Assembly (NCBI GenBank): GCA_965277275.1
Contig: CBDICG010000002.1
Coordinates: 2,322,850-2,386,849 of the forward strand
Length of the DNA stretch: 64,000 bases
Reading direction: 5' to 3'
Source: Paracoccaceae bacterium
GTDB taxonomy: Bacteria > Pseudomonadota > Alphaproteobacteria > Rhodobacterales > Rhodobacteraceae
Position 1 is the first letter of the stretch; each line of letters starts with the position of its first letter. Of this stretch, positions 17,105 to 36,827 are shown piece by piece. Under the pieces are notes generated by a model. That model was not told the DNA's origin and searched no databases. It saw only the letters and a program-made list of their open reading frames with translations. The translations under genes were made by a program, and so were the position numbers.

Positions 17105-17806
17105 ATGGCATCAAACGACACGATCGGTTCTGGCGGTTTTGGCGGTTCTGGCGGTTCTGGCGGTTCTGGCGGTTCTGGCGGTTCCGGCAGCTTCGAGGCC
17201 GAGATGCGGGCCGCGCTGTTTGACGCGCGGCGGTCCATGCGCACGCGCCGTTTCACCCAGGACAGCCCGCTGTTGCCGGATATCTGGCTGGCGTTCGCCG
17301 CCGCTCCGAGTGCTCCTCTCGACATGCTCATCAATCCAACGCGCGGCAAGCGCACAGGCATGGTCGCGCAGGAAATGCGCGGTCTCGTCGAGGCATTGCG
17401 CGATACCGGGCGGTCCGACGAGGCCACCGTGCGGGGAAGCTGGGGCACCGCCGAGCCGCGTATCGTCCACATGCCGGGAATGATCGTCGCGCGGCTCTAT
17501 TTCAACGAGCTGATGCGCATCGTCCTGCCCAGTACGAATTGGTGGGACACACAGATGGGCCTGCTCGATGGCGGCCCGTTCAGCCGTGCCGAGCGTGATG
17601 AGAACGGCTCCGAAGCGGAGCGCCACCACCTCTTCAACGCCGCCCAGATCAACAAGCTGATCGATGTCTACGACGCAGTCGTGGCCGAGGATCAGCCGCT
17701 CGAGACGATCAAGTCCCTCCAGCCGCCGCCCTACGAGTTTCTCAAGCTCATCGAGGTCGCTGCGCTGGTCGTCGGGCGGCATCTCGAAGGGCAGATCGAG
17801 GCATGA
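17105..17806 (+). CDS. N-terminal part of an S8 peptidase gene, ends at an in-frame TGA
   Basis: ATG after GGGGG RBS; GS-rich start, then RFTQDSPLLPDIWLAF...LYFNELMRIVLPSTNWW. Same frame as 17840..19216. Confidence 0.75.
   Translation: MASNDTIGSGGFGGSGGSGGSGGSGGSGSFEAEMRAALFDARRSMRTRRFTQDSPLLPDIWLAFAAAPSAPLDMLINPTRGKRTGMVAQEMRGLVEALRDTGRSDEATVRGSWGTAEPRIVHMPGMIVARLYFNELMRIVLPSTNWWDTQMGLLDGGPFSRAERDENGSEAERHHLFNAAQINKLIDVYDAVVAEDQPLETIKSLQPPPYEFLKLIEVAALVVGRHLEGQIEA
17126..17188 (+). repeat. 9-bp in-frame tandem repeat (GGTTCTGGC)x7, two variant units, encoding a Gly/Ser tract
   Basis: Counted directly. Confidence 0.92.
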
Positions 17807-19216
17807 GACGAAGACGCCGCATCCGCTATTCTGCACCCGGTGCGCCTCTTCGCGTCGCTCTACGAGAAGTGGCCCGCCGACCCGACGCAACCCCGCTCGC
17901 GCGCCGTCATCTGGAACGTCACGCGCAACAGAAAGGCCGATCCGGCGATCGAGAAGTCGGTCAAGGCGATGAAAGCCGATGCGGGCCGAATGCTCTTCAG
18001 CATCGATTGCAGCGCGCTGCGCTGTGCCGTGATCGACAGCGGGATCGACACGCTGCACCCCGCCTTCCAAAACCGCGAGCCCAGGTCCGGCGAGCCTCGG
18101 TCGCGCGTCATTGGAACCTACGATTTCGGCGATCTGCGCTATGCCCTCGACCCGCGCTTTCTGGAAAAGCTGCGCGACCTCGTGCGCACCGGAACGCAGC
18201 CGCCGAGCGAGACCTCCCCGAAACGCGAGGATCGCGCCCTTGCGCGCACCCATCGCCGCTTTTCGGGCTACGATGCGCCGGGGACGGCGCAGATCCGCGA
18301 GGACCGTCTCGCGGACTACCTCCAGCTTGTGATTGACCGCGCCAATGCCGGGCTCGAGATCGACTGGGCCGTGGTCGAACCGCTCATCCACGAGCCCCTG
18401 ACGGACACCGTCGCTCCGCCTCCGCCGCGCCTCCCCCACGGGACGCAGGTCGCCGGGGTGCTGGCCGCCGATCACCCGCAAGCGGATGGCTCGCGGCTGG
18501 CGGGCGTTTGCCCGGATCTGCGCCTCTACGATCTCCGCGTCGTATCCGAAACGGAGGACAACGCGACAACCGTCGCGGCACATGATTTCGAGGTCATCGC
18601 GGCGCTGAAGTTTCTCGGGCACCTGAACGGGCGGGCCGACGAGCCCGCTGTGCACGCGGCCAACGTATCGGTCTCGATCCCGCATGACGTGTCCCGCTTT
18701 GCCTGCGGGCGCACACCCATCTGCGAGGAATGCGAGCGCCTCGTATCCTCCGGCGTCGCGGTCGTCGCTGCGGCGGGCAACTCCGGCTACAATGACGACG
18801 AGGATGTGGATGCCCGGTTCTACCGCTCCGGTTCGATCACGGATCCGGGGAATGCCGAGCTGGTGCTGACCGTTGGCTCGACGCATCGCGAGATGCCCCA
18901 CCAGTATGGCGTCAGTTACTTTTCGTCTCGCGGACCGACCGGCGATGGCCGGCGCAAGCCGGATCTCGTCGCTCCGGGGGAAAAGTTGAGCGTTCCGGCG
19001 CCGGGCGGGCGCCTCGATATCGTGGACGGAACGAGCTTCGCCGCGCCGCATGTCACGGGGGCCGCGCTCCTGATGATGGCCCGGCATACCGAGCTGATCG
19101 GGCGCCCCCAGCGCATCAAGGAAGTCCTGTGCAGCTCCGCCACGGATCTCGGCCGGGAGCCCTATTCGCAAGGCGCCGGCATGCTCGATGTGCTGCGGGC
19201 GCTGCAATCCATTTGA
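17807..19216 (+). CDS. S8 subtilisin-like serine protease catalytic domain (continuation after TGA; possible GTG start 17840)
   Basis: Triad intact: AVIDSGID, PHGTQVAG, AAGNSG, GTSFAAPHVTG. No signal peptide. Confidence 0.9.
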   Translation, partial: DEDAASAILHPVRLFASLYEKWPADPTQPRSRAVIWNVTRNRKADPAIEKSVKAMKADAGRMLFSIDCSALRCAVIDSGIDTLHPAFQNREPRSGEPRSRVIGTYDFGDLRYALDPRFLEKLRDLVRTGTQPPSETSPKREDRALARTHRRFSGYDAPGTAQIREDRLADYLQLVIDRANAGLEIDWAVVEPLIHEPLTDTVAPPPPRLPHGTQVAGVLAADHPQADGSRLAGVCPDLRLYDLRVVSETEDNATTVAAHDFEVIAALKFLGHLNGRADEPAVHAANVSVSIPHDVSRFACGRTPICEECERLVSSGVAVVAAAGNSGYNDDEDVDARFYRSGSITDPGNAELVLTVGSTHREMPHQYGVSYFSSRGPTGDGRRKPDLVAPGEKLSVPAPGGRLDIVDGTSFAAPHVTGAALLMMARHTELIGRPQRIKEVLCSSATDLGREPYSQGAGMLDVLRALQSI

Positions 19217-19231
19217 GAGGAGAATTGAACA

Positions 19232-22200
19232 ATGGCCAAGTTTACAATGGTCGCCGACGGGTTCGTGCCCAAGAAGGTGAAGGTCGCGCAGGGGCTGAAG
19301 ACAGGCTATGCGCCGAAGTCAAAGCGCACCCGGTCCGGCCTGCTCTCGGTGATCGGCGACGACGAGCGCAGCCGGTTCACCGACACGCATCTTGCCCCCT
19401 GGCGCATGATCTGCTCGCTGCGCATTCACGCGGCCTCCGGCGCGGTCATGATCGGAACGGGCTGGCTGATCGGCCCGAGGACGGTGCTGACGGCTGGCCA
19501 CTGCATCGCGACCCGCGAGCACGGTGCCCATGCCCGGATCGAGGTGATGGCCGGGCGCAACGGAGACGTCTTTCCGTTCGATACGAGGGTCGTCGACCAT
19601 GGCCGCATGGAGGTGCATCCACGCTGGGCCAACGGCTTCGATCCGGATCGCGATGTCGGCGTGCTGCATCTTCCCGATGAGCTTGGGCGCGAGACGGGAT
19701 GGTTCGCCACGGCCACCCCGACAGACGGGGAGCTCGCAGGACTCTTGGTGAACGTCGCGGGCTACCCGGGCTCGATCGAGGTCGGGGGCAGGCGCACGCG
19801 CGTCAACGGGCGCGAGCTGTGGTGGCACGCGGACGCCATCGCGCGGTCCGACGCCGAGCGCATCTTCTACGCCACCGATACGAGCGGCGGGCAGAGCGGC
19901 GGCCCGGTCTGGACAGCGACCGATCAGGGCGGCGCTCCGATCGGGATTGCCGTTCATGCCTATGGCGCGACGCAGCTGCGTCTGCCGGGCGGGCTCGCCC
20001 CCGCCATGGCCAACTCCGCGCCCCGGATCGACGCGGATCTCGCGGACCGCATCACCGACTGGATCGCGCAGAGCCATGCCATGGCCGAGATGGCAGCTCC
20101 ACCCGCGCCTCCGCACGGCACTTTCGGGTCGGGCATAGCCTCGGGCGCCGGGGCAGGAAACGGCTCCGGTGGCAGGCAAGGCGGAGGAGGCGCCGGTGGA
20201 GGGAGCGGCGGCGGTGGCCATCCGCCAACGGGCGGCGGTGGCAACTCGGACGGCGGAGGCGGTCGCAGTGGCGGCGGCAGCGGCGGCGGCGATGGCGGCG
20301 GCGGCCCGATCGACATCACCGAGCTGATGCGCCGCGTCTCGGATCCCGACGTCCCCTGGTCCGAGGTGGCGCCCTATCTCGCAGAAGACGAGACCTTTTC
20401 GCAGCCCTTCTCCCCGCGCTATCGCCTGTCGCCCGGTCCGGGCCAGCCGGTGCCGGAATCGGCGGCCGCACTCGATTGGCTCAATGCCGCCATTCGCGCC
20501 CGGCGACGGCGCCAGTTCAACCGGGACACGCGGCGGCGCCCCGGGGACCGCCGGATTGTCACGGACGGCGATTCCTGGTTCCTCCACCCGCTCATCACCG
20601 AAACATGGGGCGTCCTGCGCCCCCGCTATCTCGCGCTGAGCCTCGATGGTGCGGGCGACCTGGTCGAGGATATCGCGCGGGAGCGGCACGCAATCGCCGC
20701 AGCCCGCGAGATCGGAGCGCTGGCCGTCGTCCTCAGTGGCGGCGGGAACGATGTTCTGGCCGGGGGCGCCCTCGAAGAGGTTCTGACCGTTGGCGATGGG
20801 CAGGACCCGCGGACCTACATTGATCTCGCCGCCTACCGCGCCAAGGTCGACGCGGTTGTCGACGATCTGGGCGGCTATGCCCGTGCGCTGCTGACCGGCA
20901 ACGTCGGTCTGCACGTCTTCATGCACGGCTATGACCGGCCCCGCCCGATGCCCGGAGGCAAATGGCTGGAACGCCCGATGCGCGACCGGGTGCCCCCCGC
21001 GCTTCAGGCGGGCGTTGTCGGCCACATGATCGACGTTTTCAACGACGCGGTGGCAGAGCTTGCCGCCGATCTTGGCAGCCGCGCGCACTACGTCAACATG
21101 CGCGGTGCCGCGCCGCATCCCTGGTACGATGAGATCCACCCGAGCGACGCTGGCTTCGTCGAAGTCGGTAACCGGATGGATGCCGCAATCCGTGCCGCCC
21201 TTGGCGAAGCGGCCCCGGAGTTCGCAGGCAGCGCGCTGCCGCCCCTCGCCCCGCACCTGATGCGCAACGTCGAGGACGCGGACGAGGCCGTCGCCCGCCG
21301 GCGCTATATCGCCCGGATGACGGAGGCGGGCCATCCCGTGCTTTCGGTGCGTCCACTGGGCATGCAGGGGCCGCAGCCCGAGAGCGTCGCGCGCGTGCCG
21401 GGCAGGGAGCGCGTCGTCCTGCCCGCTGGTACCATGGCGGCGACAGAGGGGCTGGACTTCGGCGACGATGTCGCTCTCGAAGTCGTTCTGGGCGCGCCGG
21501 ATTTCCTTGCCGCCCGGTTCCTGCGCGATGGCGCGGCGCGGGCCTCTGCCGTCTGCCGCGTGCGCCTGCCCGGCGGTTTCGGCTCCGGCTCGTTGCTAAG
21601 GGGCGACGTGATCCTGACCAACCACCACGTCCTGCCCGATGCAGCCACGGCGGCGCAGGCGATTGCGGAGTTCGACTTCGAGGAAGGCGGCACGCCGATC
21701 CCGGTGCGCCTCGAACCCGAGAGGCTCTTTATCGCAAGCGAGGGGCACGACTTCGCGCTGGTCGCCTGTGACGCGTCGGCGCTCGCCGGGGTAACCCCGA
21801 TCGATCTTCCGCTCGAGCCATCGGGGATCGTCGAGGGCGCGCCGGTCAACATCATCCAGCACCCCGCCGGACGCCAGAAAGAGGTCGCGCTGCGCAACAA
21901 CGACGTGCTCTCTGTCCTCTCCGGCACCATGCGCTATCGCACGGATACGGAGGGTGGCTCCTCCGGCTCGCCGGTGTTCGACGATTCCTGGCGGCTCGTG
22001 GCGCTGCACCGTGCCGGTCTGGCGGGCGCCTTCAACCAGGCGGTGCGGATCGAGGCGATTGCCGGGTTCCTCGAGGCGCGCCTCGCCAACGGCGACATCG
22101 CGAACGCCACGCTCCTGCGCCAGGTCCTGCAGGGAACGGCGCCGGAGCTTGGGTTCTTCGGGCGGGCCGGGGCTTTCGACACGCTCACGCCCGAAGTCGA

Positions 22201-23146
22201 GCTCCCGAGTTTCACGGGAGACGGCGTTTTCGCGGATGTCGGGTTCTGGAACATCCAGGATTTCTTTGGCGACCCCTCGGAGGCGCGCATACGCCGCGTG
22301 GCCGAGCTGCTGACCGACATGAACATGGATGGGATGGGCCTGATGGAAGTGTCCGAGGCGCCTGTTCGGGCTCTGGCGGCGCGGATGAACGCGATGGGCG
22401 GCAATGTCGGCGTGCTGGCGTTCGACACCGCCGGGACGCGGGACCACGCGTTGCTCTTTGACCGCGACACCACCACCGTGCGCCTGATGCGGGAGGTGCT
22501 GGATCGCCATGCCGGTTTGATCGGAGAGCGCATCCAGGGCCGGCTTGTCTTCCCGCGTGAACCGCTCATCGCGGAGGTGCATGTCGGAGACGCCCGCTTC
22601 GTGATGATCGTGGTGCATCTGAAATCCAAGGCCGGCAGCAACAAGCCCTTGTCAGAACGCCGCCGCCGCCGCGCCGCCGAGATCCTGACGATGATCGTCG
22701 ACGATATCCGCACGGATACGGGCCTGCCCGTGGTCATTGGCGGCGATTTCAACGAGGCGCTCGATACCGATGTGCTGTCGAGCCTCACGGATGCGCCCGG
22801 CCACATGACCCTCACCGCGGATGACCACGAGGATGGGGCCATCACGCTGCTCAACCCACGGTTCGCCTCGCTGATCGACCACGTGATCGTGGCCGGTGAC
22901 CTGCAGCTTGGCGACATCGAGGATGACGACCTCGCCATCGTGCGGTTCGACCGCTCGATCTCGGATTTCGTCGACACGCTCTCGGATCATACACCGCTGG
23001 TGATGCGCGTCGTGATGCGGGACGAGGCGGTGCCCCGCCAAGTGCCGGGCGATGGCGCAGGCGGATCCGCTGGCGGCGGCGGCGAAGCGCCCGACGCGAT
23101 CGACATTCCGCAGGGCGCGAGCGCAGTCCGGGTCAGCTTCGACTAG
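19232..23146 (+). CDS. Multidomain protein: V8-like trypsin / Gly-rich linker / SGNH hydrolase / trypsin / EEP nuclease-phosphatase
   Basis: LTAGHC..DVGVL..TSGGQSGGP; GDSWF..GGGND..DEIHP; TNHHV..DFAL..TEGGSSGSP; WNIQ..MEV..VHLKS..GGDFNE..IDH..LSDH. Strong GAGAGGAG RBS. Confidence 0.88.
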   Translation: MAKFTMVADGFVPKKVKVAQGLKTGYAPKSKRTRSGLLSVIGDDERSRFTDTHLAPWRMICSLRIHAASGAVMIGTGWLIGPRTVLTAGHCIATREHGAHARIEVMAGRNGDVFPFDTRVVDHGRMEVHPRWANGFDPDRDVGVLHLPDELGRETGWFATATPTDGELAGLLVNVAGYPGSIEVGGRRTRVNGRELWWHADAIARSDAERIFYATDTSGGQSGGPVWTATDQGGAPIGIAVHAYGATQLRLPGGLAPAMANSAPRIDADLADRITDWIAQSHAMAEMAAPPAPPHGTFGSGIASGAGAGNGSGGRQGGGGAGGGSGGGGHPPTGGGGNSDGGGGRSGGGSGGGDGGGGPIDITELMRRVSDPDVPWSEVAPYLAEDETFSQPFSPRYRLSPGPGQPVPESAAALDWLNAAIRARRRRQFNRDTRRRPGDRRIVTDGDSWFLHPLITETWGVLRPRYLALSLDGAGDLVEDIARERHAIAAAREIGALAVVLSGGGNDVLAGGALEEVLTVGDGQDPRTYIDLAAYRAKVDAVVDDLGGYARALLTGNVGLHVFMHGYDRPRPMPGGKWLERPMRDRVPPALQAGVVGHMIDVFNDAVAELAADLGSRAHYVNMRGAAPHPWYDEIHPSDAGFVEVGNRMDAAIRAALGEAAPEFAGSALPPLAPHLMRNVEDADEAVARRRYIARMTEAGHPVLSVRPLGMQGPQPESVARVPGRERVVLPAGTMAATEGLDFGDDVALEVVLGAPDFLAARFLRDGAARASAVCRVRLPGGFGSGSLLRGDVILTNHHVLPDAATAAQAIAEFDFEEGGTPIPVRLEPERLFIASEGHDFALVACDASALAGVTPIDLPLEPSGIVEGAPVNIIQHPAGRQKEVALRNNDVLSVLSGTMRYRTDTEGGSSGSPVFDDSWRLVALHRAGLAGAFNQAVRIEAIAGFLEARLANGDIANATLLRQVLQGTAPELGFFGRAGAFDTLTPEVELPSFTGDGVFADVGFWNIQDFFGDPSEARIRRVAELLTDMNMDGMGLMEVSEAPVRALAARMNAMGGNVGVLAFDTAGTRDHALLFDRDTTTVRLMREVLDRHAGLIGERIQGRLVFPREPLIAEVHVGDARFVMIVVHLKSKAGSNKPLSERRRRRAAEILTMIVDDIRTDTGLPVVIGGDFNEALDTDVLSSLTDAPGHMTLTADDHEDGAITLLNPRFASLIDHVIVAGDLQLGDIEDDDLAIVRFDRSISDFVDTLSDHTPLVMRVVMRDEAVPRQVPGDGAGGSAGGGGEAPDAIDIPQGASAVRVSFD

Positions 23147-23240
23147 CGATGAGGGGCCGCGCGCGGGCGCGGCTCATGCCGCCCACAGGGCATCCCACCC
23201 GCCGAGTGTCGGGGGAATGCGCCACACAGGGAGAGATGAC

Positions 23241-24680
23241 ATGGCCGGAACCAGAAAAGACATCGCCACGCTCGGCGGGGATTGGCCGGATGAGCTTTTA
23301 TGGTACGCGCGCGCCGTCGCAGAGCTGCGCACGCGGCCTCTGACAGACCGCACAAGCTGGGCCTATCTTGCCGCGCTGCATGGGTTGAACGGGGAGGGCT
23401 GGATCGATCAGGGGATCCTTCCCCAGAACACCCCGGCCCCGCCTCCCAACGAAATGCAGCTGATGTTCAACCAGTGCCAGCATGCCGGGTGGTTCTTCCT
23501 GCCGTGGCATCGCGGCTATCTTGCGGCGTTCGAGGCGATCCTCGGCGGCTGGATCGCCCAGCAGGGCGGGCCGCAGGATTGGGCCTTGCCCTACTGGAAC
23601 TATCTCTCCGATGCCCCGGGCGCGCGGGATCTTCCTCCCGCATTCCGCGATGCGACCCTGCCCGACGGAACGCCGAACGCGCTGGCCCGGGCCGTCCGTG
23701 GGCCAGCCACCACGCTTGGCCCGCTGCCCTGGACGGATTCCCGGGATATCACCTTGGCATCCCAGACCGCCGAGGCCTTTTACACATCGGATCCGGGGGG
23801 GCTCGGGTATGGCGGTCCGATCAGCGGCTTTGCCTCGCAGGGGAACGCCTTTGGCGCGGTGGAGAATGATCCCCACAACCTTGTCCACGTGATGATCGGC
23901 GGCGGGACAGCGCAGGGTCAGCAGGCAGGCTGGATGCTCGATCCCGACTTTGCCGCCCTCGATCCGGTGTTCTGGGTGCATCACTGCAATATCGACAGGC
24001 TCTGGGCGGCCTGGATGACCGACCCGACACATGTGCAGGAAGTCTCTGCCGCCTGGGGCAATGGCCCGTTTCCCCGCCGCTTTGCTATGCCCTCCGCCGA
24101 TGGCTCCGGGATCGAGACATTCGCGCCCGAAGAAACGTTGCCCAACGGGGCGCTGGCGCCCGATTATGACGATCTCACAGCGGGCACGGGCATCCTGCCC
24201 GCCCCCGAGATCGCTGCCGCCGCCCCGCCTGCCCGCCCTCCTGCGCCGCTGCTGATCGGTGCAAACGATGCGCCGCTCACCGTGGACGCCGAAGCCCGGA
24301 CAACCCAGCTCGCCCTGCGGCGCGCGCCCGTCCCCGAGCTTGCGTCCGCCGTGCCCGCGCGCGTGTTCCTCAGTGTCGAAGGGGTACGCGGCCAAGCCCC
24401 GAGCGGCGTGCTGCGCGTCTCGGTCTCCGCGCCGGGCGGCGAGGAAGCGTTTCGCACCGCCATCGCCTTCTTCGGCCTCGGCAAGGCCTCCCGGACAGAC
24501 GGCAGCCATGCGGGCAACGGTCTTGCCGCGACGGTCGATGTCTCGGCCGAGCTGGGCGCCCTCCTGGCCGAGGGCGGCGCGGCGCTCGATGCGCTCGACC
24601 TGGCCCTGGTGAGGCCAACCGATGGAGAGCCGCCGATCACGGTGGATCGTATCAGCCTGCACACCCAGCCGGGCGCCTGA
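23241..24680 (+). CDS. Tyrosinase (type-3 copper protein) with C-terminal extension domain
   Basis: CuA: ALHG..CQH..FFLPWHR. CuB: PHNLVH..DPVFWVHHCNIDRLW. No signal peptide. Confidence 0.92.
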   Translation: MAGTRKDIATLGGDWPDELLWYARAVAELRTRPLTDRTSWAYLAALHGLNGEGWIDQGILPQNTPAPPPNEMQLMFNQCQHAGWFFLPWHRGYLAAFEAILGGWIAQQGGPQDWALPYWNYLSDAPGARDLPPAFRDATLPDGTPNALARAVRGPATTLGPLPWTDSRDITLASQTAEAFYTSDPGGLGYGGPISGFASQGNAFGAVENDPHNLVHVMIGGGTAQGQQAGWMLDPDFAALDPVFWVHHCNIDRLWAAWMTDPTHVQEVSAAWGNGPFPRRFAMPSADGSGIETFAPEETLPNGALAPDYDDLTAGTGILPAPEIAAAAPPARPPAPLLIGANDAPLTVDAEARTTQLALRRAPVPELASAVPARVFLSVEGVRGQAPSGVLRVSVSAPGGEEAFRTAIAFFGLGKASRTDGSHAGNGLAATVDVSAELGALLAEGGAALDALDLALVRPTDGEPPITVDRISLHTQPGA

Positions 24681-24681
24681 G

Positions 24682-25455
24682 ATGCGCAGCGCGCGCGCCG
24701 CGTGGGCCCAGCTGCGGACCGGTCCGCTGCCCGTGCTGCTGATCCTCAGCCTCCTTGGCTTCATCGCGCTCGGGGTCATTCCCGGCGCCGCGGCCGCCGC
24801 CGTATGCGGGAGCCTGCGCCTCGCCGATCTGTGGTCCCTCGGTGGGCCGGCGCTCACGGGGGTGAGCCCTGCATCCGTAGCGCTCGACTGGGGGGTCATG
24901 GTCGTCGCGATGATGAGCGTCGTGATCACGCCGCAGGTGGCCCATGTCCTGCGCCTGAGCCCTCCGCGTGCCCGGGGTGCCGCGGCGGCCTCCGTCTATC
25001 TCGGCTTCCTGTCCGTCTGGCTTCTGGCGGGGGCGCTCCTGCTGCCGCTCGGGATGCTCCATGTCCAGACAGCGCCCGGTGGCCTTGCGCCGCTTCTGGC
25101 GGTCGGGTTCGCGCTTGTCTGGAGCGCCTCTCCTCCGGCACAGGCCGCGCGCAACCGGTGTCACCGGCTTGGCCGGGTCGGCGGGTTCGGGCCACGCGCG
25201 AGGTGGGACAACGCGCGGATCGGCATCCGCACCGGCCTCTGGTGCGTTGCCGCATGCTGGCCGGTCATGCTCATCCCGCTCACGATCGGCGGGGCAGCGC
25301 ATGTGCCCGCGATGGCCATTGCCGCGCTCTATCTCCTGCTGGAGCGGATCGGGCCCCCGGCCCCTGTCCGCTGGAGCCTTCCCCCCGTGATCTCGCTCGT
25401 CCGGCAGGCCCTCCTGCCCGTTGCAAGAGTCCGCCGCACCAGCCGCGCCATCTGA
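24682..25455 (+). CDS. DUF2182-like putative metal-binding integral membrane protein
   Basis: DWGVMVVAMM, ARNRCH, GLWCVAACWPVM, HVPAMA..LLER; several TM segments; 1 bp after the tyrosinase. Confidence 0.8.
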   Translation: MRSARAAWAQLRTGPLPVLLILSLLGFIALGVIPGAAAAAVCGSLRLADLWSLGGPALTGVSPASVALDWGVMVVAMMSVVITPQVAHVLRLSPPRARGAAAASVYLGFLSVWLLAGALLLPLGMLHVQTAPGGLAPLLAVGFALVWSASPPAQAARNRCHRLGRVGGFGPRARWDNARIGIRTGLWCVAACWPVMLIPLTIGGAAHVPAMAIAALYLLLERIGPPAPVRWSLPPVISLVRQALLPVARVRRTSRAI

Positions 25456-25589
25456 AAAGCCGCAATGCCGTGCTCCCACGGCGCGCGCATTGCCCAACCC
25501 CGGCCACCGCACAGCCCGCTTCATCTTCTGTTCCCACCGCCTCACCGCGCCTGGATCTGCGGGGGGCAGTCCGCGAATGTCTTCCTGCG

Positions 25590-25604
25590 TTAACCGAGGC
25601 TTAC
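25590..25604 (+). promoter_or_regulatory. CtrA-like site with one mismatch, TTAA-N7-TTAC
   Basis: TTAA ccgaggc TTAC about 50 bp upstream of the Hint/RTX gene. Confidence 0.4.
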
Positions 25605-25655
25605 GAGGTCGCGCGTAAGGTCCATGCCACCGCCCCCGATCCGGAGCCGACTGGC

Positions 25656-27581
25656 ATGCCGCTCTACCTGTTTTCCGGCTATGCGCCGAGCGATTTTCAG
25701 ACCATCCAAGGCTCGACGCCGGGCAGCCAAGCGTCAAAAATGTTGCGCGTACCCGACGACACGACGCACGCCTTCGAGGTCAACGATGACGACGGGATGC
25801 TATCGGGATCCGGCGGGTCGGTCAGGACCGCGGGCGATACAAACCAGAAAGCCAGTGTCTACCAGGGCAATGCCGCCGCCGCCTCAGGCACAGTGTATGT
25901 ACAAAGTGTTATGTCCTTCGAAGATCAGGCTGGCACGCCCCACAAGGCCTACCTTGTGGGGATCGAGGAGAGCGGCGAACGCTTTTATGTCTTCGAAGCG
26001 CCGCCACCGGCGGGTGGAACGGATCTCACGGTCATCTCGTCGTCCCCACCTCCGAGCGAGGGCGTCGCCTATTCCGCCCTTGCCGGCAACGACATCCGCG
26101 ATTCGGACGCGCGGCCCGCCACGGATGCCTCGGGGAACGAGTACATTGCATCCGGCTCCGGGGATGACGCGCTCACCACGCGCGGCGGAAACGACACCGT
26201 CGACGCAGGGGAAGGGAACGATACCGTCACCGCCGGAGACGGCGACGACAGCATCGAAGGCGGGGCAGGCAACGATTCGCTCGACGGCGGCGCCGGGAAC
26301 GACACGCTCTCGGGGGGAGCAGGCAATGACACGCTCCATGGCGACGCCGGCAACGACCAGATCGACGGCGGCGCGGGCAGCGACATCATCTATGGCGGCG
26401 AGGGCAACGACACCCTCGCTGGCAACGAGGGCACCGATTGTCTGCGCGGGGATGCCGGCAACGACGTCATCTTCGGCGGCGCCGGGGACGACGCCGCGAC
26501 CGGAGGGGCAGGCAACGATACGCTCTACGGCAACGACGGGGCGGATGTTCTCTATGGCGGCGACGGCGACGACTTCCTGATCGGGGACGGTGGCAACGGC
26601 GAAACCGGGAACGATACGCTGATCGGTGAAGCCGGAGATGACACGCTGTTCGGTCAGGGCGGCGATGACGTCATGACCGGTGGAAGCGGCAACGACTTCT
26701 TCCTTGTCAGCGCGGGCAACGACACGATCACGGATTTCAACGGGGGCAATACCGGATCGATCGATGACCGCGACCTGATGAACAACGACTTCGTCAACTT
26801 GTCGACTTACTACGACAACCTCAGCCAGGTGCGCGCCGACCACGCCGATGACGGCGTCCTGAACCAGTCAAACACGTCTGACAGCCACGGAAACGCGGTC
26901 GATTACTCGGATAACACCCAGTTCGGGGCCTCTTCCCTGACAATGCAGGGCGCAACTTCGCAAAGCTTTACCTACGACACCACGGGGCTGGAGTGCTTTG
27001 CGTCGGACACCCTTATCGACACGCCGAAAGGTGCGGTGCGGGCAGGGGCGCTCCGTCCAGGGGATCTCGTGACGACGCTCGATCATGGGCCTCAGCCGCT
27101 CCTGTGGGTCGGGGTGCGCCGGCTGGAGGGGCATCACCTCAGGGGCAACGTCAGGCGCCGTCCTGTCCTTGTCCGGCAAGGGGTGCTGGGCGCCCGCCGC
27201 GATCTCTTCGTGTCGCGCCAGCACGGGCTGGTTGTCGGCGATAACCTCTCCCGCGCGATCCACCTCTGCCGGACGATGAAAGGGGTGCGTATCGCCCATG
27301 GCAAGCGGCACGTCACCTACGTGCATCTCCTGTTCGAGCGCCATCAGATCGTCATATCCGAGGGCGTGCCGAGCGAGAGCTTCTATCCCGGGCCGAGCGC
27401 GCTCCGGACAATGGCCCCCGAGGCGCGCCGCGCGGTGCTGCGGCTCTTGCCGGGTCTGGATCGCCCCGAGGCCACGACCGGTTTCGCGGTGGTGCGCGCG
27501 GTCTACGGCCCCACGGCGCGGCCCTTTGCGCCGCCCCGGCGGGCTGCCGCCGAGCGGCCCGCCCTCGACATCGCCTCCTAG
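25656..27581 (+). CDS. RTX Ca-binding repeat protein with C-terminal Hint (bacterial intein-like) domain
   Basis: Many GGAGNDxL nonapeptides; ECFASDTLIDTPKG..GDLVTTLDHG..YVHLLFERHQIVISEGVPSESFYPG. ATG after GGAG. Confidence 0.92.
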   Translation: MPLYLFSGYAPSDFQTIQGSTPGSQASKMLRVPDDTTHAFEVNDDDGMLSGSGGSVRTAGDTNQKASVYQGNAAAASGTVYVQSVMSFEDQAGTPHKAYLVGIEESGERFYVFEAPPPAGGTDLTVISSSPPPSEGVAYSALAGNDIRDSDARPATDASGNEYIASGSGDDALTTRGGNDTVDAGEGNDTVTAGDGDDSIEGGAGNDSLDGGAGNDTLSGGAGNDTLHGDAGNDQIDGGAGSDIIYGGEGNDTLAGNEGTDCLRGDAGNDVIFGGAGDDAATGGAGNDTLYGNDGADVLYGGDGDDFLIGDGGNGETGNDTLIGEAGDDTLFGQGGDDVMTGGSGNDFFLVSAGNDTITDFNGGNTGSIDDRDLMNNDFVNLSTYYDNLSQVRADHADDGVLNQSNTSDSHGNAVDYSDNTQFGASSLTMQGATSQSFTYDTTGLECFASDTLIDTPKGAVRAGALRPGDLVTTLDHGPQPLLWVGVRRLEGHHLRGNVRRRPVLVRQGVLGARRDLFVSRQHGLVVGDNLSRAIHLCRTMKGVRIAHGKRHVTYVHLLFERHQIVISEGVPSESFYPGPSALRTMAPEARRAVLRLLPGLDRPEATTGFAVVRAVYGPTARPFAPPRRAAAERPALDIAS

Positions 27582-32882: not shown

Positions 32883-35800
32883 TCAAACCATCGCGACGTC
32901 CGTGAACGCGAAGTTCGCCTCGCTCAATCCCGCCAGCTGCACATCCTCGAAGGTCACCGAGCCGCCGTCCGAGAACGAGAGTTGCGCGTTGCCATCCGCC
33001 GCGCTGGCCAGTGCCAGCGTGTCGTAGGTCAGGTCGAAGCCAACGAGCGACACGACATCCTCGGCGACATCGAAGTCCGTGATCGCGTCGGCCCCGTCCC
33101 CTTCGGCGACCACGAACAGGTCTGCACCCCGGCCCCCCGTAAGGACATCATCGCCCGCGCCGCCGATCAGGATGTCGTCACCCCGCTGTGCGACGAGGGT
33201 GTTCGCCGCATCCGAGCCGCGCAGGATATCATCGCCGTCTCCGGAAACCGCATTCTCGATCGCACTGCCCGCCGAGAGCGTCACAAAGGTTTGCCCGCCC
33301 ACCGTGCTGCTTGCCCCGGCAGCAAGGCTGACATCCAGATCGCCCGTCATCGCGGCCATGTTCAGCCAATCCGCCCCACCGTCCGTATCGTCGAGCAGCA
33401 CGCGGGCGGGATCGTCCGCAGGCGCGGTCGGGGTACCCCCGGCACCGTCCGGAACGGACGCCGCGAAGACCTCATCGGTGTAGTGGTAGGTGTCATCGCC
33501 AGCATTGGCCGAAGCGATCTCGGCGCCGTACCACGTTATCTCGAAGGCTTCGAGCACCGCGCCGCCCGTATCCGGGTCGATGATCTCCAGCGTCCAGAGG
33601 CCGTCGCCCGACGCCGTCTCGCCGAGGAACGCTTCGGCCCCGAACGACCAGTCGAGCGGGCCCACGGGCGCCTCGCCGTCGCCGAGCACCTGCACCCGCG
33701 TGCCCGATGCCGAGGTCAGGAATACGTCGACGGAGGAATCCGACAGGGTCAGCGACACGTAGACATGCTCGACCCCCATCGCGACCGCACTCAGATCAAA
33801 CGTCAGCGGCAGCGAGGCACCCACCGCCTGCGGCCCGGCGGAGGCCACCAAGTAGCTCATCTCGTTGGCGCTCGTCTGCGCGACGTCGAAGAGACTCCAC
33901 GCCTCGGCCATCCGGACGGCGGCGTTGACGTTGACGATGCCGAAGCCGTAATCGGGCGAGAAGTGCATCCCGCCGCCGTTCCAGTTCTCCGCGCCGTTCT
34001 CGACCCAATCGAAGTCCGTGCTGCCGAAGAGATCGTCGAAGATGCCGCCAATGATGCTGCCGCTCGTCGGGTCCTCGGGGTCGCTGAAGGTGGCGGAGAG
34101 GGCGAGGATGTTCTGCACATCGCGCCAGCCGAGCCCCGGCGCGGCTTCCAGCATCAGCGCCGTGACGGCCGATACGATCGGCGCCGAGGCCGACGTGCCG
34201 CCAAAGCCCGTCAGGCTGCCGGTGCCGGTGTAGTCGCCCTCGGCGTAGCCCGCCGAGCCCATGAGGTCGGTCGTCAGTACGCCGCGGTCGAGGAACAGCT
34301 CCCCGCTCGACGGCGCCGTCACCAGCACGTTCGCGCCGTGGTTGGAATAGGACGCCGCCGCCCCGCTCTCGCTCACGGCAGCCACGGTGATCGAATGGCG
34401 CGACGCGTCGATCAGGTCGCCCGAAGAGTTCGCCGTCGCGTTTCCGGCGGACTTGACGAGGATCGTCCCCAGCCCGTCGCGCCCTGTCGTTGAGGCATGG
34501 TCGAAGGCGATGAGCGTCTTGCCGAAGAGGTCGGCGGGCGCGGGATCGTCCGGCTCGAAGCCGGGCGAGGCGCCCCAGCTGTTATTGACCACATCGAACG
34601 CGGCCATCTGCATGACGGCCTCGAAGTAATCCGTCAGGTCCGGCGAATTCGCGCCCGCCACCCCGTCGATGATGTTGACCCCGGTGATGCTGGCGTTGAA
34701 CGCACCGCCGACGATCCCCGTCCCGTCCGCCTCTGCGGCGATGATCCCGGCCACGGCCGTTCCGTGCGCGGCGGTACCGGTCGAGGGGTCGAGCACGTTG
34801 CCCGCCACGGTCACGTGCATGCTGGCGTCGTAGTTGCCGTCGAGGTCCGGGTGGCTCCACTGCACCCCGTCGTCATAGATCGCGACGGACACGCCCGCGC
34901 CGGTGTAATCCACCCAGATCTCTTCGATCGTGCCGATGGCCTGCAGGTGCCATTGCTCGGCGTAGCGGTCATCGGTGGGGGTGAAGCGAGGCGGGGCGGA
35001 CGCGAGCAGAATGTCGGTCACGCCCCAGTTCCACGACGGATCGCCGATATAGCGGAATTCGATCTCGTTTGTGCCCGGCACCTGCGCGGCGGCGGCAATG
35101 TAGAAGTCGTGTTCCGAGAACGCATCGTTCGATCCGCCCGGCAGGATGCCGTAGGAAACGCCGTTGACGAACACCTCGATCTCGTCCGCCGCGTCCATGT
35201 CCCACGCGCGGAAGCTCAGGAGCAGATCCTCGCCTGTACTCTCGAAGATGGCCGTTGGGCCTTCGGTGTCGGACAGGCCGTTCAGCCCGCGCCCGAAGGT
35301 GGCATCCGCCGTCTCGCCGATCACCAGTTCCAGATCGGGGATGTCGGGGGGCGGTGGCGGGGGTGGGGGGGCGACGTCGAGCAGGATGTCCGTCACGCCC
35401 CAGTTCCAGTTGGACGCACCGATGTAGCGGAATTCGATCTCGTTGGTGCCGCTGAGCTGTTCGCCCGCCGGGATCAGGATCTCGACGTCGTTGAACCCGT
35501 TGTTGGAGCCTTTCGCGACCACGCCGTAGGACGCCCCGTTGACGAAGATCTCCACTTCGTTCGCCGCGTCCATGTCCCATGCGCGGAAGGTGAGCAGCAG
35601 GTCCTCACCGGTGCCCTCGAACGTCGCGGTGCGGCCCTCGGTGTCCGTGAGGCCGTTGAGGCCCTTGCCGAACGTCACGTCCGACATCTCACCCAGCACC
35701 AGCGCAAGGACACCGCCCGTTGGCTCAGGGTCCGGAGCGACGTCGAGCAGGATGTCCGTCACGCCCCAGTTCCAGTTGGACGCACCGATGTAGCGGAATT

Positions 35801-36827
35801 CGATCTCGTTCGTGCCGGAGAGCTGTTCGCCCGCCTGGATCAGGATCTCGACGTCGTTGAACCCGTTGTTGGAGCCCTTCGCGACCACGCCGTAGGACGC
35901 GCCGTTGACGAAGATCTCCACTTCGTTCGCCGCGTCCATGTCCCATGCGCGGAAGGTGAGCAGCAGGTCCTCGCCAGAGCCCTCGAACGTCGCGGTGCGG
36001 CCCTCGGTGTCCGTGAGGCCGTTGAGGCCCTTGCCGAACGTCACGTCGGCGGGCGCACCCAAAGCTAACGCGAAATCGCCTGAGGTCGGCTCGGGTGGTG
36101 GGGGGGCGACGTCGAGCAGGATGTCCGTCACGCCCCAGTTCCACCCTGCATCGCCGATATAGCGGAACTCGATCTCATTCGTACCGGAGAGCTGCTCGCC
36201 CGCCGGGATCAGCACTTCGTGCGTGTTGAACCCGTTGTTGGAGCCCTTCGCGACCACGCCGTAGGACGCGCCATTGACGAAGATCTCCACTTCGTTGGCG
36301 GCGTCCATGTCCCAGGCTTCGAAGGTCAGGAGCAGGTCCTCGCCCGTGCCCTCGAACGTCGCGGTGCGACCCTCGGTGTCCGTGAGGCCGTTGAGGCCCT
36401 TGCCGAACGTCACGTCCGCCGCTTCCCCGAGAACGAGGGCGAAATCCCCCGTGGTCGGGTCCTGCGGGGGCGCGACGTCGAGCAGGATGTCGGTCACGCC
36501 CCAGTTCCAGCTCGGATCGCCGATATAGCGGAATTCGATCTCGTTCGTGCCCGAGAGCTGGTTTGCGCCGGGGATCAGGAACTCGACATCGTTGAAGCCG
36601 TTGTTCACGCCCTTGGCCACGACCCCGTAGGACACGCCGTTGACGAACACCTCCACCTCGTTGGCGGCGTCCATGTCCCATGCGCGGAAGGTCAGGAGCA
36701 GGTCTTCGCCCGTGCTTTCGAAGGTAGCGGTAGGACCATCGGTGTCGGTCAGGCCGTTCAGACCCTTGCCGAAGGTCTCGGTGCTTGCCGCGCCAACGAC
36801 AAGGATCAAATCCGGATTGGTCGTCAT
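32883..36827 (-). CDS. Kexin-like S8 protease with five N-terminal ~122-aa repeats, P-domain and RTX tail
   Basis: IYDDGV, HGTAVAG, SAGN, GTSASAP; P-domain (GLWTLEIID); GGAGDDVLTGGRGADLF and ITDFDVAEDVVSL at the C-terminus. Confidence 0.92.
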   Translation of the reverse strand: MTTNPDLILVVGAASTETFGKGLNGLTDTDGPTATFESTGEDLLLTFRAWDMDAANEVEVFVNGVSYGVVAKGVNNGFNDVEFLIPGANQLSGTNEIEFRYIGDPSWNWGVTDILLDVAPPQDPTTGDFALVLGEAADVTFGKGLNGLTDTEGRTATFEGTGEDLLLTFEAWDMDAANEVEIFVNGASYGVVAKGSNNGFNTHEVLIPAGEQLSGTNEIEFRYIGDAGWNWGVTDILLDVAPPPPEPTSGDFALALGAPADVTFGKGLNGLTDTEGRTATFEGSGEDLLLTFRAWDMDAANEVEIFVNGASYGVVAKGSNNGFNDVEILIQAGEQLSGTNEIEFRYIGASNWNWGVTDILLDVAPDPEPTGGVLALVLGEMSDVTFGKGLNGLTDTEGRTATFEGTGEDLLLTFRAWDMDAANEVEIFVNGASYGVVAKGSNNGFNDVEILIPAGEQLSGTNEIEFRYIGASNWNWGVTDILLDVAPPPPPPPPDIPDLELVIGETADATFGRGLNGLSDTEGPTAIFESTGEDLLLSFRAWDMDAADEIEVFVNGVSYGILPGGSNDAFSEHDFYIAAAAQVPGTNEIEFRYIGDPSWNWGVTDILLASAPPRFTPTDDRYAEQWHLQAIGTIEEIWVDYTGAGVSVAIYDDGVQWSHPDLDGNYDASMHVTVAGNVLDPSTGTAAHGTAVAGIIAAEADGTGIVGGAFNASITGVNIIDGVAGANSPDLTDYFEAVMQMAAFDVVNNSWGASPGFEPDDPAPADLFGKTLIAFDHASTTGRDGLGTILVKSAGNATANSSGDLIDASRHSITVAAVSESGAAASYSNHGANVLVTAPSSGELFLDRGVLTTDLMGSAGYAEGDYTGTGSLTGFGGTSASAPIVSAVTALMLEAAPGLGWRDVQNILALSATFSDPEDPTSGSIIGGIFDDLFGSTDFDWVENGAENWNGGGMHFSPDYGFGIVNVNAAVRMAEAWSLFDVAQTSANEMSYLVASAGPQAVGASLPLTFDLSAVAMGVEHVYVSLTLSDSSVDVFLTSASGTRVQVLGDGEAPVGPLDWSFGAEAFLGETASGDGLWTLEIIDPDTGGAVLEAFEITWYGAEIASANAGDDTYHYTDEVFAASVPDGAGGTPTAPADDPARVLLDDTDGGADWLNMAAMTGDLDVSLAAGASSTVGGQTFVTLSAGSAIENAVSGDGDDILRGSDAANTLVAQRGDDILIGGAGDDVLTGGRGADLFVVAEGDGADAITDFDVAEDVVSLVGFDLTYDTLALASAADGNAQLSFSDGGSVTFEDVQLAGLSEANFAFTDVAMV
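34990..36815 (-). repeat. Five intragenic tandem repeats, period about 366-375 bp
   Basis: GCGACGTCGAGCAGGATGTC recurs at about 35371, 35737, 36106 and 36472; a divergent fifth copy near 34996. Confidence 0.92.

Follow-up and report, generated by a model that had tools for sequence, protein, structure and literature searches.

The window analysed here, a stretch of 64,000 nucleotides (nt) of contig CBDICG010000002.1 from a Paracoccaceae bacterium, holds at 19232-23146 of its forward strand an open reading frame (ORF) for a protein of 1304 amino acids (aa), in which four enzyme domains are arranged in the order trypsin-1 (T1), Gly linker, SGNH, trypsin-2 (T2) and EEP. Between the stop codon of a gene for an S8 subtilase (S8) and the start of the ORF lie 15 nt, an operon-like spacing. 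A preliminary description of this DNA had read all four domains in the one frame, which is confirmed here, and each motif lies where that description had it: GDSWF at aa 446-450 (nt 20567), DEIHP at aa 633-637 (nt 21128), GGSSGS at aa 908-913 (nt 21953), WNIQ at aa 1006-1009 (nt 22247) and LSDH at aa 1250-1253 (nt 22979), with the Gly tract at aa ~296-357 (nt 20117-20302). The catalytic sets of all four domains are intact in the query and invariant in three full-length orthologues of 49-53% identity, and because these orthologues keep all four sets the ORF is, on comparative grounds, a real gene. The gene pair comprises the following features, with the evidence for each in brackets.

17105-19216 (+): S8 subtilase, 703 codons, with an N-terminal domain of ~290 aa (Peptidase_S8, E 2e-33; homology to intact orthologues)
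17804-17806 (+): in-frame TGA at S8 codon 234 of 703 (homology continues on both sides)
19217-19222 (+): GAGGAG, Shine-Dalgarno-like, 9 nt ahead of the ATG (sequence read)
19232-23146 (+): four-enzyme ORF, 1304 aa (uninterrupted reading frame)
19232-19345 (+): propeptide-like extension at the N-terminus, aa 1-38, with the invariant G36-L37-L38 as its last residues (orthologue alignment, junction comparison)
19346-20101 (+): T1, V8/Glu-endopeptidase-like S1B protease, aa 39-290 (Pfam, match to 1p3c, invariant triad)
20117-20302 (+): Gly-rich low-complexity linker, aa 296-357 (unconserved in sequence and length among orthologues)
20303-21211 (+): SGNH esterase module, aa 358-660, including an N-terminal helical extension of ~85 aa (motifs, fold search)
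21212-21478 (+): SGNH-T2 connector, aa 661-749, ending at L749-E750 (poorly conserved save for the motifs LPPLAPH and RRRY)
21479-22126 (+): T2, Trypsin_2-type S1B protease, aa 750-965 (Pfam, residue conservation in 63 relatives)
22127-22228 (+): T2-EEP connector, aa 966-999 (family-wide GFFGR at aa 974-978, profile over 63 T2-EEP proteins)
22229-23026 (+): EEP domain, aa 1000-1265 (Pfam Exo_endo_phos, invariant residues)
23027-23143 (+): C-terminal tail, aa 1266-1304 (low-complexity stretch, then a conserved end I-P-x6-V-x-V-S-F-[DT])

Domains and junctions of the four-enzyme protein

T1 is matched by Pfam Trypsin (PF00089) over aa 68-257 (E 1e-13, 51.7 bits, gathering cut-off 20.6), and its triad, H90, D141 and S222, is invariant in the four orthologues including the query, with T217 and H242 as pocket residues. 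In its match to the glutamyl endopeptidase of Bacillus intermedius (1p3c, E 5e-12), V40 is aligned with mature residue 2, and since the alignment begins at that point of the mature enzyme, residues 1-38 appear to be a propeptide-like extension. T1 junctions in other contexts read E-[ST]↓V-[IL]-G-x-D-x-R before the predicted mature N-terminus (the arrow marks the putative cut), and the four S8-paired fusion proteins have the invariant junction G-L-L-S↓V-I-G, with Leu in place of Glu. The bond L38↓S39 is thus placed as a candidate T1 activation cut; in subtilase substrates, the position ahead of the cleaved bond is preferably hydrophobic.

The second protease is matched by Pfam Trypsin_2 (PF13365) over aa 784-925 (E 1e-31, 111 bits, gathering cut-off 27.6). 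Its catalytic and pocket residues are kept in 60-63 of 63 relatives, the triad being H799 (62/63), D840 (63/63) and S911 (63/63) and the pocket residues T906 and H926. The T2 junction follows the pattern [LFY]-E↓x-[IV]-[IVL]-G, with Glu at the position of E750 in 58 of 60 sequences, and E750↓V751 is a candidate T2 activation cut. By the literature on V8 and SGPE, a Thr or Ser five residues ahead of the catalytic Ser and a His some 15-20 residues past it mark a Glu-specific S1B pocket; the pairs T217/H242 and T906/H926 would be this signature, and T1 is probably Glu-specific. The stretches that join the domains differ in their constraint: the Gly tract is replaced in the orthologues by unrelated low-complexity sequence of other length, the SGNH-T2 connector is modelled with a confidence score (pLDDT) below 50 in an AlphaFold2 (AF2) prediction, and the C-terminal tail is conserved in the alignment of the four orthologues.

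The identity of the SGNH module is the weakest of the four domain calls, and is supported by motifs, by a homologue and by a predicted fold. The motif residues are S448 (GDSW), G503-N506 (GGGND) and D633/H636 (DEIHP), and the blocks GDSW, GxND and DExH are invariant across eight homologues. Full-length Pfam and NCBIfam scans of the protein report no SGNH domain, and the isolated segment scores 23.1 bits with Lipase_GDSL_2, below the Pfam cut-off of 32.9; the homologous module of the related protein P0010 reaches 40.8 bits, above that cut-off, and precomputed Lipase_GDSL_2 matches are listed for two further relatives, P0002 and P0004. A sequence search of the segment against the PDB returned spurious RTX-like matches only. 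In a Foldseek search with the AF2 model of aa 358-745, which is of moderate confidence (pLDDT 64, core 70-90), the first 42 PDB matches are all GDSL/SGNH proteins (probability 0.97-1.0, TM-score to target 0.5-0.57), with 8ik1, 7e16, 5mal and 4hyq among the top ones. These matches span esterases, lipases, phospholipase A1 and carbohydrate or peptidoglycan O-acetyl esterases, so that the membrane-attacking role given to this domain in the preliminary description is not established.

The EEP domain is matched by Pfam Exo_endo_phos over aa 1006-1253 (E 3.5e-9, 37.2 bits, cut-off 24.5) and retains the catalytic residues N1007, E1039, H1129, D1172/N1174, D1216/H1217 and D1252/H1253. It had been proposed to attack either nucleic acids or phosphate groups. 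Profile searches rank nuclease-type members (the EEP-domain protein 9sf9, EEPD1, DNase I) above sphingomyelinases, and because these are the nearest members and nucleases fill the EEP slot in relatives, the first of the two activities, that of a nuclease, is favoured.

Fusion origin and the partner subtilase

The combination of domains, which had been called unusual, is rare: a word-indexed search of 5.8 billion (5.8e9) protein clusters recovers T1-SGNH-T2-EEP in four clusters, the query and three others, and a pattern search through 185,579 species genomes finds one carrier, an uncultured alphaproteobacterial metagenome-assembled genome (MAG) of Limibaculum, which is also the closest named relative of the gene. 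An exhaustive phmmer comparison of aa 358-1304 with 1.84e9 representatives found 290 matches at E <= 1e-30, and domain mapping of the top 150 of them yields the following counts.

T2-EEP: about 50 proteins
SGNH-T2 or T2-SGNH: about 50 proteins
SGNH-T2-EEP, stand-alone: 10 proteins (P0024 and 9 others)
T2-T1, with a TPR-S sensor domain: 7 proteins
T1-SGNH-T2-EEP: 4 proteins

The four-enzyme architecture is therefore rare and its component parts are not. One of the stand-alone proteins, P0024 (939 aa, 51% identity), can be aligned from one end to the other with the part of the query past the Gly tract and is the same protein without T1 and linker. That part of the query aligns with residue 8 of P0024 and with residues 2-4 of P0005, P0006, P0008 and P0010, and because the SGNH module thus starts at residues 2-8 in these five proteins, the four-enzyme protein is a fusion of a stand-alone T1 with a stand-alone SGNH-T2-EEP, with the seam at the Gly tract. 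The idea that two proteases bracket an esterase by design does not hold, as the arrangement arises from this fusion and P0024 has neither T1 nor linker.

The gene upstream of P0024 encodes neither S8 nor T1, and therefore the S8 pairing goes with T1 and not with SGNH-T2-EEP. With a gap of 10 nt, the gene 5' of P0024 (L014:3-1427) encodes an alpha/beta-hydrolase-like protein with the nucleophile elbow AHSTGA; this is another class of protease-associated effector, so that T2 proteins may own separate partner genes.

T2 itself belongs, to judge by the partners fused to it, to the shuffled trypsin-nuclease family of 'System 3' (Kaur, Burroughs, Iyer, Aravind 2020, eLife 9:e52696), in which trypsin-nuclease pairing in conflict systems, also noted in the preliminary description, is on record. 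Among 44 long T2 relatives scanned with Pfam, these partners are Endonuclease_NS (8), Endonuclease_1 (6), Amidase_2/3 (4), EAD1, EAD5 and STAND NTPase (each 1/44), and also lysozyme, Lipase_3 and Peptidase_C11. A scan of viral contigs with the T2 motif found no relatives and so lends no support to a phage origin.

S8 lies directly upstream of the fusion in 4/4 loci (the window and the orthologous loci L001, L002 and L004), and in the three orthologous loci it is an intact Peptidase_S8 gene for ~710 aa, on the same strand and 22-32 nt upstream. The S8 family, N-terminal domain (N-domain) included, counts at least 243 clusters and at least 583 metagenomic matches. Among 80 metagenomic loci classified, 76 had readable downstream DNA, and the gene downstream of S8 encodes a metallo-beta-lactamase (MBL)-fold protein in 75/76 and a T1-type trypsin in 1/76. 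The S8-linked MBLs match the PADLOC effector models LmuA, Avs1a and RTasMBL with E 1e-33 to 1e-48. At locus L013, S8 is followed by a stand-alone T1 that is 41% identical to the query T1 (E 9e-60), and L015 is a clean two-gene unit of S8 and T1 flanked by housekeeping genes. When 88 S8 proteins are placed in a neighbour-joining tree, the six that are linked to T1 (two next to a stand-alone T1, four next to a fusion) form an exclusive clade. The simplest history would be a single swap of MBL for T1 in the effector slot and a later fusion of T1 to SGNH-T2-EEP: a V8-like protease, T1, would have replaced the MBL effector in the widespread module of S8 and MBL zymogen, and would then have been joined through a Gly-rich linker to a pre-existing SGNH-T2-EEP protein.

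The N-domain of S8 (L001:7786-8661; window 17105-~17980) has an invariant RFTQDSP...W motif and is modelled with a pLDDT of 85; it may represent an undescribed regulatory or sensor fold common to hundreds of S8-MBL modules. Genes for TPR-S and TIR-WD40 proteins occur near S8-MBL loci of Acidobacteriota (L011:13200-16760, L012:18029-20833), neighbours that would fit an S8 family residing in defence islands.

In this genome the S8 gene is interrupted. Its TGA corresponds in the alignment to residue 221 of the L001 orthologue, which is intact; in the model of the N-domain, a loop that connects two helices occupies this place. Contigs from three independent runs (X1, X2, X5) of two studies, which cover 17155-23300 (X5 only the stretch around the stop), show 0 differences at the TGA; a sequencing or assembly error as its cause is ruled out by these independent assemblies, and the TGA is a real nonsense mutation or marks a split gene. 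Translation could possibly restart at GTG 17840 and yield a catalytic fragment of 458 aa, and no Shine-Dalgarno sequence is seen ahead of this codon. Because the premature stop is genuine, the S8 activator is probably disabled and the module disarmed in this genome, with the effector ORF intact. Within that ORF, a 1-bp deletion at window 19291 occurs in one low-depth (2.7x) X5 contig and is absent from deeper assemblies; it is most likely assembly noise. Gly/Ser-rich tracts lie at 17129-17191 (the S8 N-terminus, GSGGFGGSGGSGG...), 20117-20302 and 23072-23110; the orthologues lack them or have them in a different form. In the read layout, two of the three attract short additional contigs, a hint of repeat-like, GGC-rich sequence at other places in the genome. 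All runs with window DNA (X1-X20) share one species label, and since the same label also bears oligo-dT RNA-seq libraries, the source bacterium probably lives with, or contaminates, a eukaryotic host or culture.

Downstream of the pair, the longest ORF of a gene for a tyrosinase with DUF7868 (23052-24680, +) shares 95 nt with the end of the four-domain ORF, and its true start is probably a later Met; a literature search on DUF7868 found no paper that mentions it. It is followed by the gene for a protein of 959 aa (24702-27581, +) that combines calcium-binding repeats of RTX type with a Hint_2 domain at the C-terminus; this protein is of typical secreted, self-splicing type and unrelated to the finding. 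These two genes were rejected as members of the unit, being unconserved in the other three loci. Further away lies a second large subtilase of 1314 aa (32883-36827, -), which carries a P-domain and RTX repeats and has a C-terminus of serralysin type, probably a type I secreted protease, with no homology to the N-domain of the S8 partner. Frame analysis by GC content at third codon positions (GC3) could not tell genes apart in the high-GC window and was not used.

When the neighbours of the four loci were compared all against all, the sole common gene was Amidase_2, 55% identical between L002 and L004, and no common adaptor or immunity gene was found among them. A peptidoglycan amidase gene stands beside the pair in 3/4 fusion loci and is missing at the window locus, and none of these amidases has a signal peptide.

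L002:11910-12542 and L004:7065-7772: Amidase_2
L001:14014-17211: Amidase_3 with glucosaminidase and ankyrin

Resemblance to known protease-effector systems

The closest parallel to the gene pair is provided by protease-associated MBLs, in which the MBL is a zymogen that two protease cuts turn into a double-stranded DNA nuclease (Evans et al. 2025, bioRxiv 10.1101/2025.11.14.688446). That study records an S8-associated MBL clade ('clade 3') and lists MBL, alpha/beta-hydrolase and Pepco, along with EACC1, as effector families. The window S8 belongs to the same family, N-domain included, and is likewise the first of a tight, co-oriented protease-then-effector gene pair, with what the genes suggest to be a latent enzyme directly behind the protease. 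In contrast to those modules, the effector here is T1-SGNH-T2-EEP, which is none of the families of Evans et al., the output would consist of two more protease tiers with an esterase and an EEP nuclease, and the protease gene of the window is interrupted, while it is intact in L001, L002 and L004.

'System 3' of Kaur et al. 2020 consists of multiple peptidase domains with a NucA-like endonuclease, and a proteolytic cascade has been proposed for it. It shares with the present loci the trypsin-like peptidases, a nuclease and an S8 peptidase, peptidoglycan-degrading enzymes nearby, and the fusion of the T2 family to Endonuclease_NS (8/44 relatives) and EAD1 (1/44); in addition, the orthologous locus L002 has an Endonuclease_NS gene beside S8, and at least one orthologue, that of the Limibaculum MAG, is alphaproteobacterial. 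It differs in that EEP replaces NucA, an SGNH esterase is added and S8 is a separate gene. Endonuclease_NS was found neither in the four-enzyme protein nor in the window neighbourhood, and the optional parts of 'System 3' (EAD1, STAND-bDLD2, transmembrane segments) are absent from the window locus. Neither Kaur et al. 2020 nor Evans et al. 2025 mentions EEP or SGNH partners.

The V8 protease SspA and the Bacillus glutamyl endopeptidase zymogens (MEROPS S1B) share the S1B fold signature with T1 and T2 and a propeptide-like extension with T1. In the V8 protease zymogen the propeptide is removed by autocatalysis and a final cut by a different protease, the same logic as is proposed here for S8 and T1. 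SspA and its relatives consist of one domain, carry signal peptides and are secreted, whereas T1 and T2 would be internal to a cytoplasmic multi-enzyme protein. MARTX-type toxins are long polypeptides with several effectors and an internal protease that could release them. The four-enzyme protein resembles them in the concept of a multi-effector polypeptide with an internal protease, but it has no RTX repeats, cysteine protease domain or secretion signal, no homology to them, and another protease type and context.

A proposed protease-effector module

At a probability of about one in two, the four-enzyme protein is a latent cytoplasmic multi-effector that forms, with the upstream S8, a two-gene protease-effector module of the conflict or abortive-infection type. 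Neither the four-enzyme protein (maximum KD19 hydropathy 1.48) nor S8 has a signal peptide or transmembrane segment, and therefore an intracellular role is favoured; profile scans of both found no RTX repeat and no known secretion or trafficking domain. A PADLOC scan of the four-enzyme protein gave weak protease-domain matches (RT-Protease_XI, Avs1b, LmuA-protease) and no system-level match. In the proposed sequence of events, a trigger would act on S8, with the conserved N-domain of ~290 aa as the likely regulator; S8 would then strip the 38-residue T1 propeptide at G-L-L↓S-V-I-G, freeing the N-terminus that S1B proteases require; T1 would cut past the near-invariant E750, parting SGNH from T2-EEP and maturing T2; and the freed esterase and EEP nuclease, possibly together with the proteases, would damage the cell's own lipids or envelope and its nucleic acids. 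The preliminary description had imagined a polyprotein that cleaves itself. Processing as such remains a reasonable model, but an isolated self-cleaver does not fit a two-gene unit with S8 that is conserved in 4/4 loci, and because the S8 family normally activates an MBL zymogen (75/76 loci), the first cut is more likely to be the work of S8, acting in trans, than that of the protein itself. That the pair would amount to a three-tier cascade of serine-protease zymogens, from subtilase to T1 to T2, built into two adjacent genes, is a more tentative proposal, possible though on balance doubtful.

Several observations weigh against the proposed module. No STAND or other sensor gene lies nearby within the window, and a Foldseek search with the S8 N-domain against the PDB gave no match (best E 0.17). 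The stand-alone T1s that are paired with S8 (L013, L015) retain the junction Glu, weakening the case for the Leu as an S8 site, and the conserved Glu ahead of T1 and T2 could have a structural role instead of marking a cut. The tree from which a single T1-linked clade was read carries no bootstrap values. The experiments of Evans et al. 2025 concern the trypsin clade of MBLs and not the S8 clade. Peptidoglycan hydrolases fused or adjacent to relatives need access to the periplasm, which suits an exported toxin as well as suicide lysis, and in the present genome S8 is truncated.

Two of the alternatives each differ from the preferred model in one step. If the protein worked in one piece, as a multi-enzyme effector whose auto-inhibition is relieved, for example by propeptide removal, and whose proteases are themselves toxic, the stand-alone S8 and T1 modules at L013 and L015 would be readily understood, as they have no further effector and T1 must be their output; T2 is moreover fused directly to many different enzymes with no obvious need for release, and the GFFGR connector between T2 and EEP is conserved like a structural element. 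Yet the Glu before the T2 N-terminus is near-invariant (58/60), the need of S1B proteases for a free N-terminus argues that an internal T2 must be cut out, and the long disordered connectors look like cleavable linkers, so that this reading is unlikely. The other alternative is an exported, auto-processing multi-effector toxin of MARTX-like logic, leaving the cell by a non-Sec route, with S8 as maturation protease; its internal proteases would cut the linkers, and the esterase and the nuclease or phosphatase would act on competitor or host cells. Relatives are fused to or adjoin Amidase_2, Amidase_3, glucosaminidase and lysozyme, whose substrate lies outside the cytoplasm, their variable C-terminal enzyme domains resemble those of polymorphic toxins, proteins of RTX and type I secretion system (T1SS) type are among the window neighbours, and the C-terminal tail is common to the four orthologues. 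Against this stand the missing export features of both proteins noted above, the fact that the RTX neighbours are unconserved in the other three loci, the lack of any small immunity-like gene conserved downstream, and the ties of the partner S8 family to an intracellular defence nuclease zymogen, which together make an exported toxin quite improbable.

A third possibility is that the locus is a decaying remnant, in which the truncation of S8 has orphaned the four-domain ORF, now turning into a pseudogene. The TGA in S8 is real and lies inside the modelled N-domain, the GTG restart lacks an evident Shine-Dalgarno sequence, and no partner sensor is nearby. The 3.9-kb ORF is nevertheless undisrupted, with every catalytic residue kept, a good ribosome-binding site and an identical sequence in independent assemblies, and decay has little to recommend it as an explanation; it would in any case concern the state of this locus and not the function of the protein family. 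The preferred model of a latent intracellular effector paired with S8 can be approached through two candidate cut sites, five catalytic Ser/His residues and intact orthologous gene pairs, which offer experimental handles.

Searches of the literature for 'TPR-S + trypsin' and for 'trypsin-like + EEP + anti-phage' found nothing specific, and the Trypsin_2-EEP unit, with about 50 representatives among the top 150 matches, is not discussed in the literature searched; it may be an unrecognised common protease-effector fusion. To our knowledge, the gating of effectors by proteases is coming to be seen as a dominant principle of bacterial immunity, and in the characterised cases one protease acts on one effector. 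The tiering of protease on protease is proposed here as new. If the cascade is real, bacteria would have in it an equivalent of initiator/executioner caspase or complement-style cascades; it would amplify, and one polypeptide would set free two death effectors that differ in their chemistry. The usual nuclease substrate of S8 would have been swapped for a second protease, itself welded to a third protease, an esterase and a nuclease. The locus suggests that the effector slot of such modules can be filled by another protease, giving a multi-step cascade with several outputs, and it would tie S8-MBL modules to the trypsin-nuclease 'System 3' through an effector swap followed by gene fusion.

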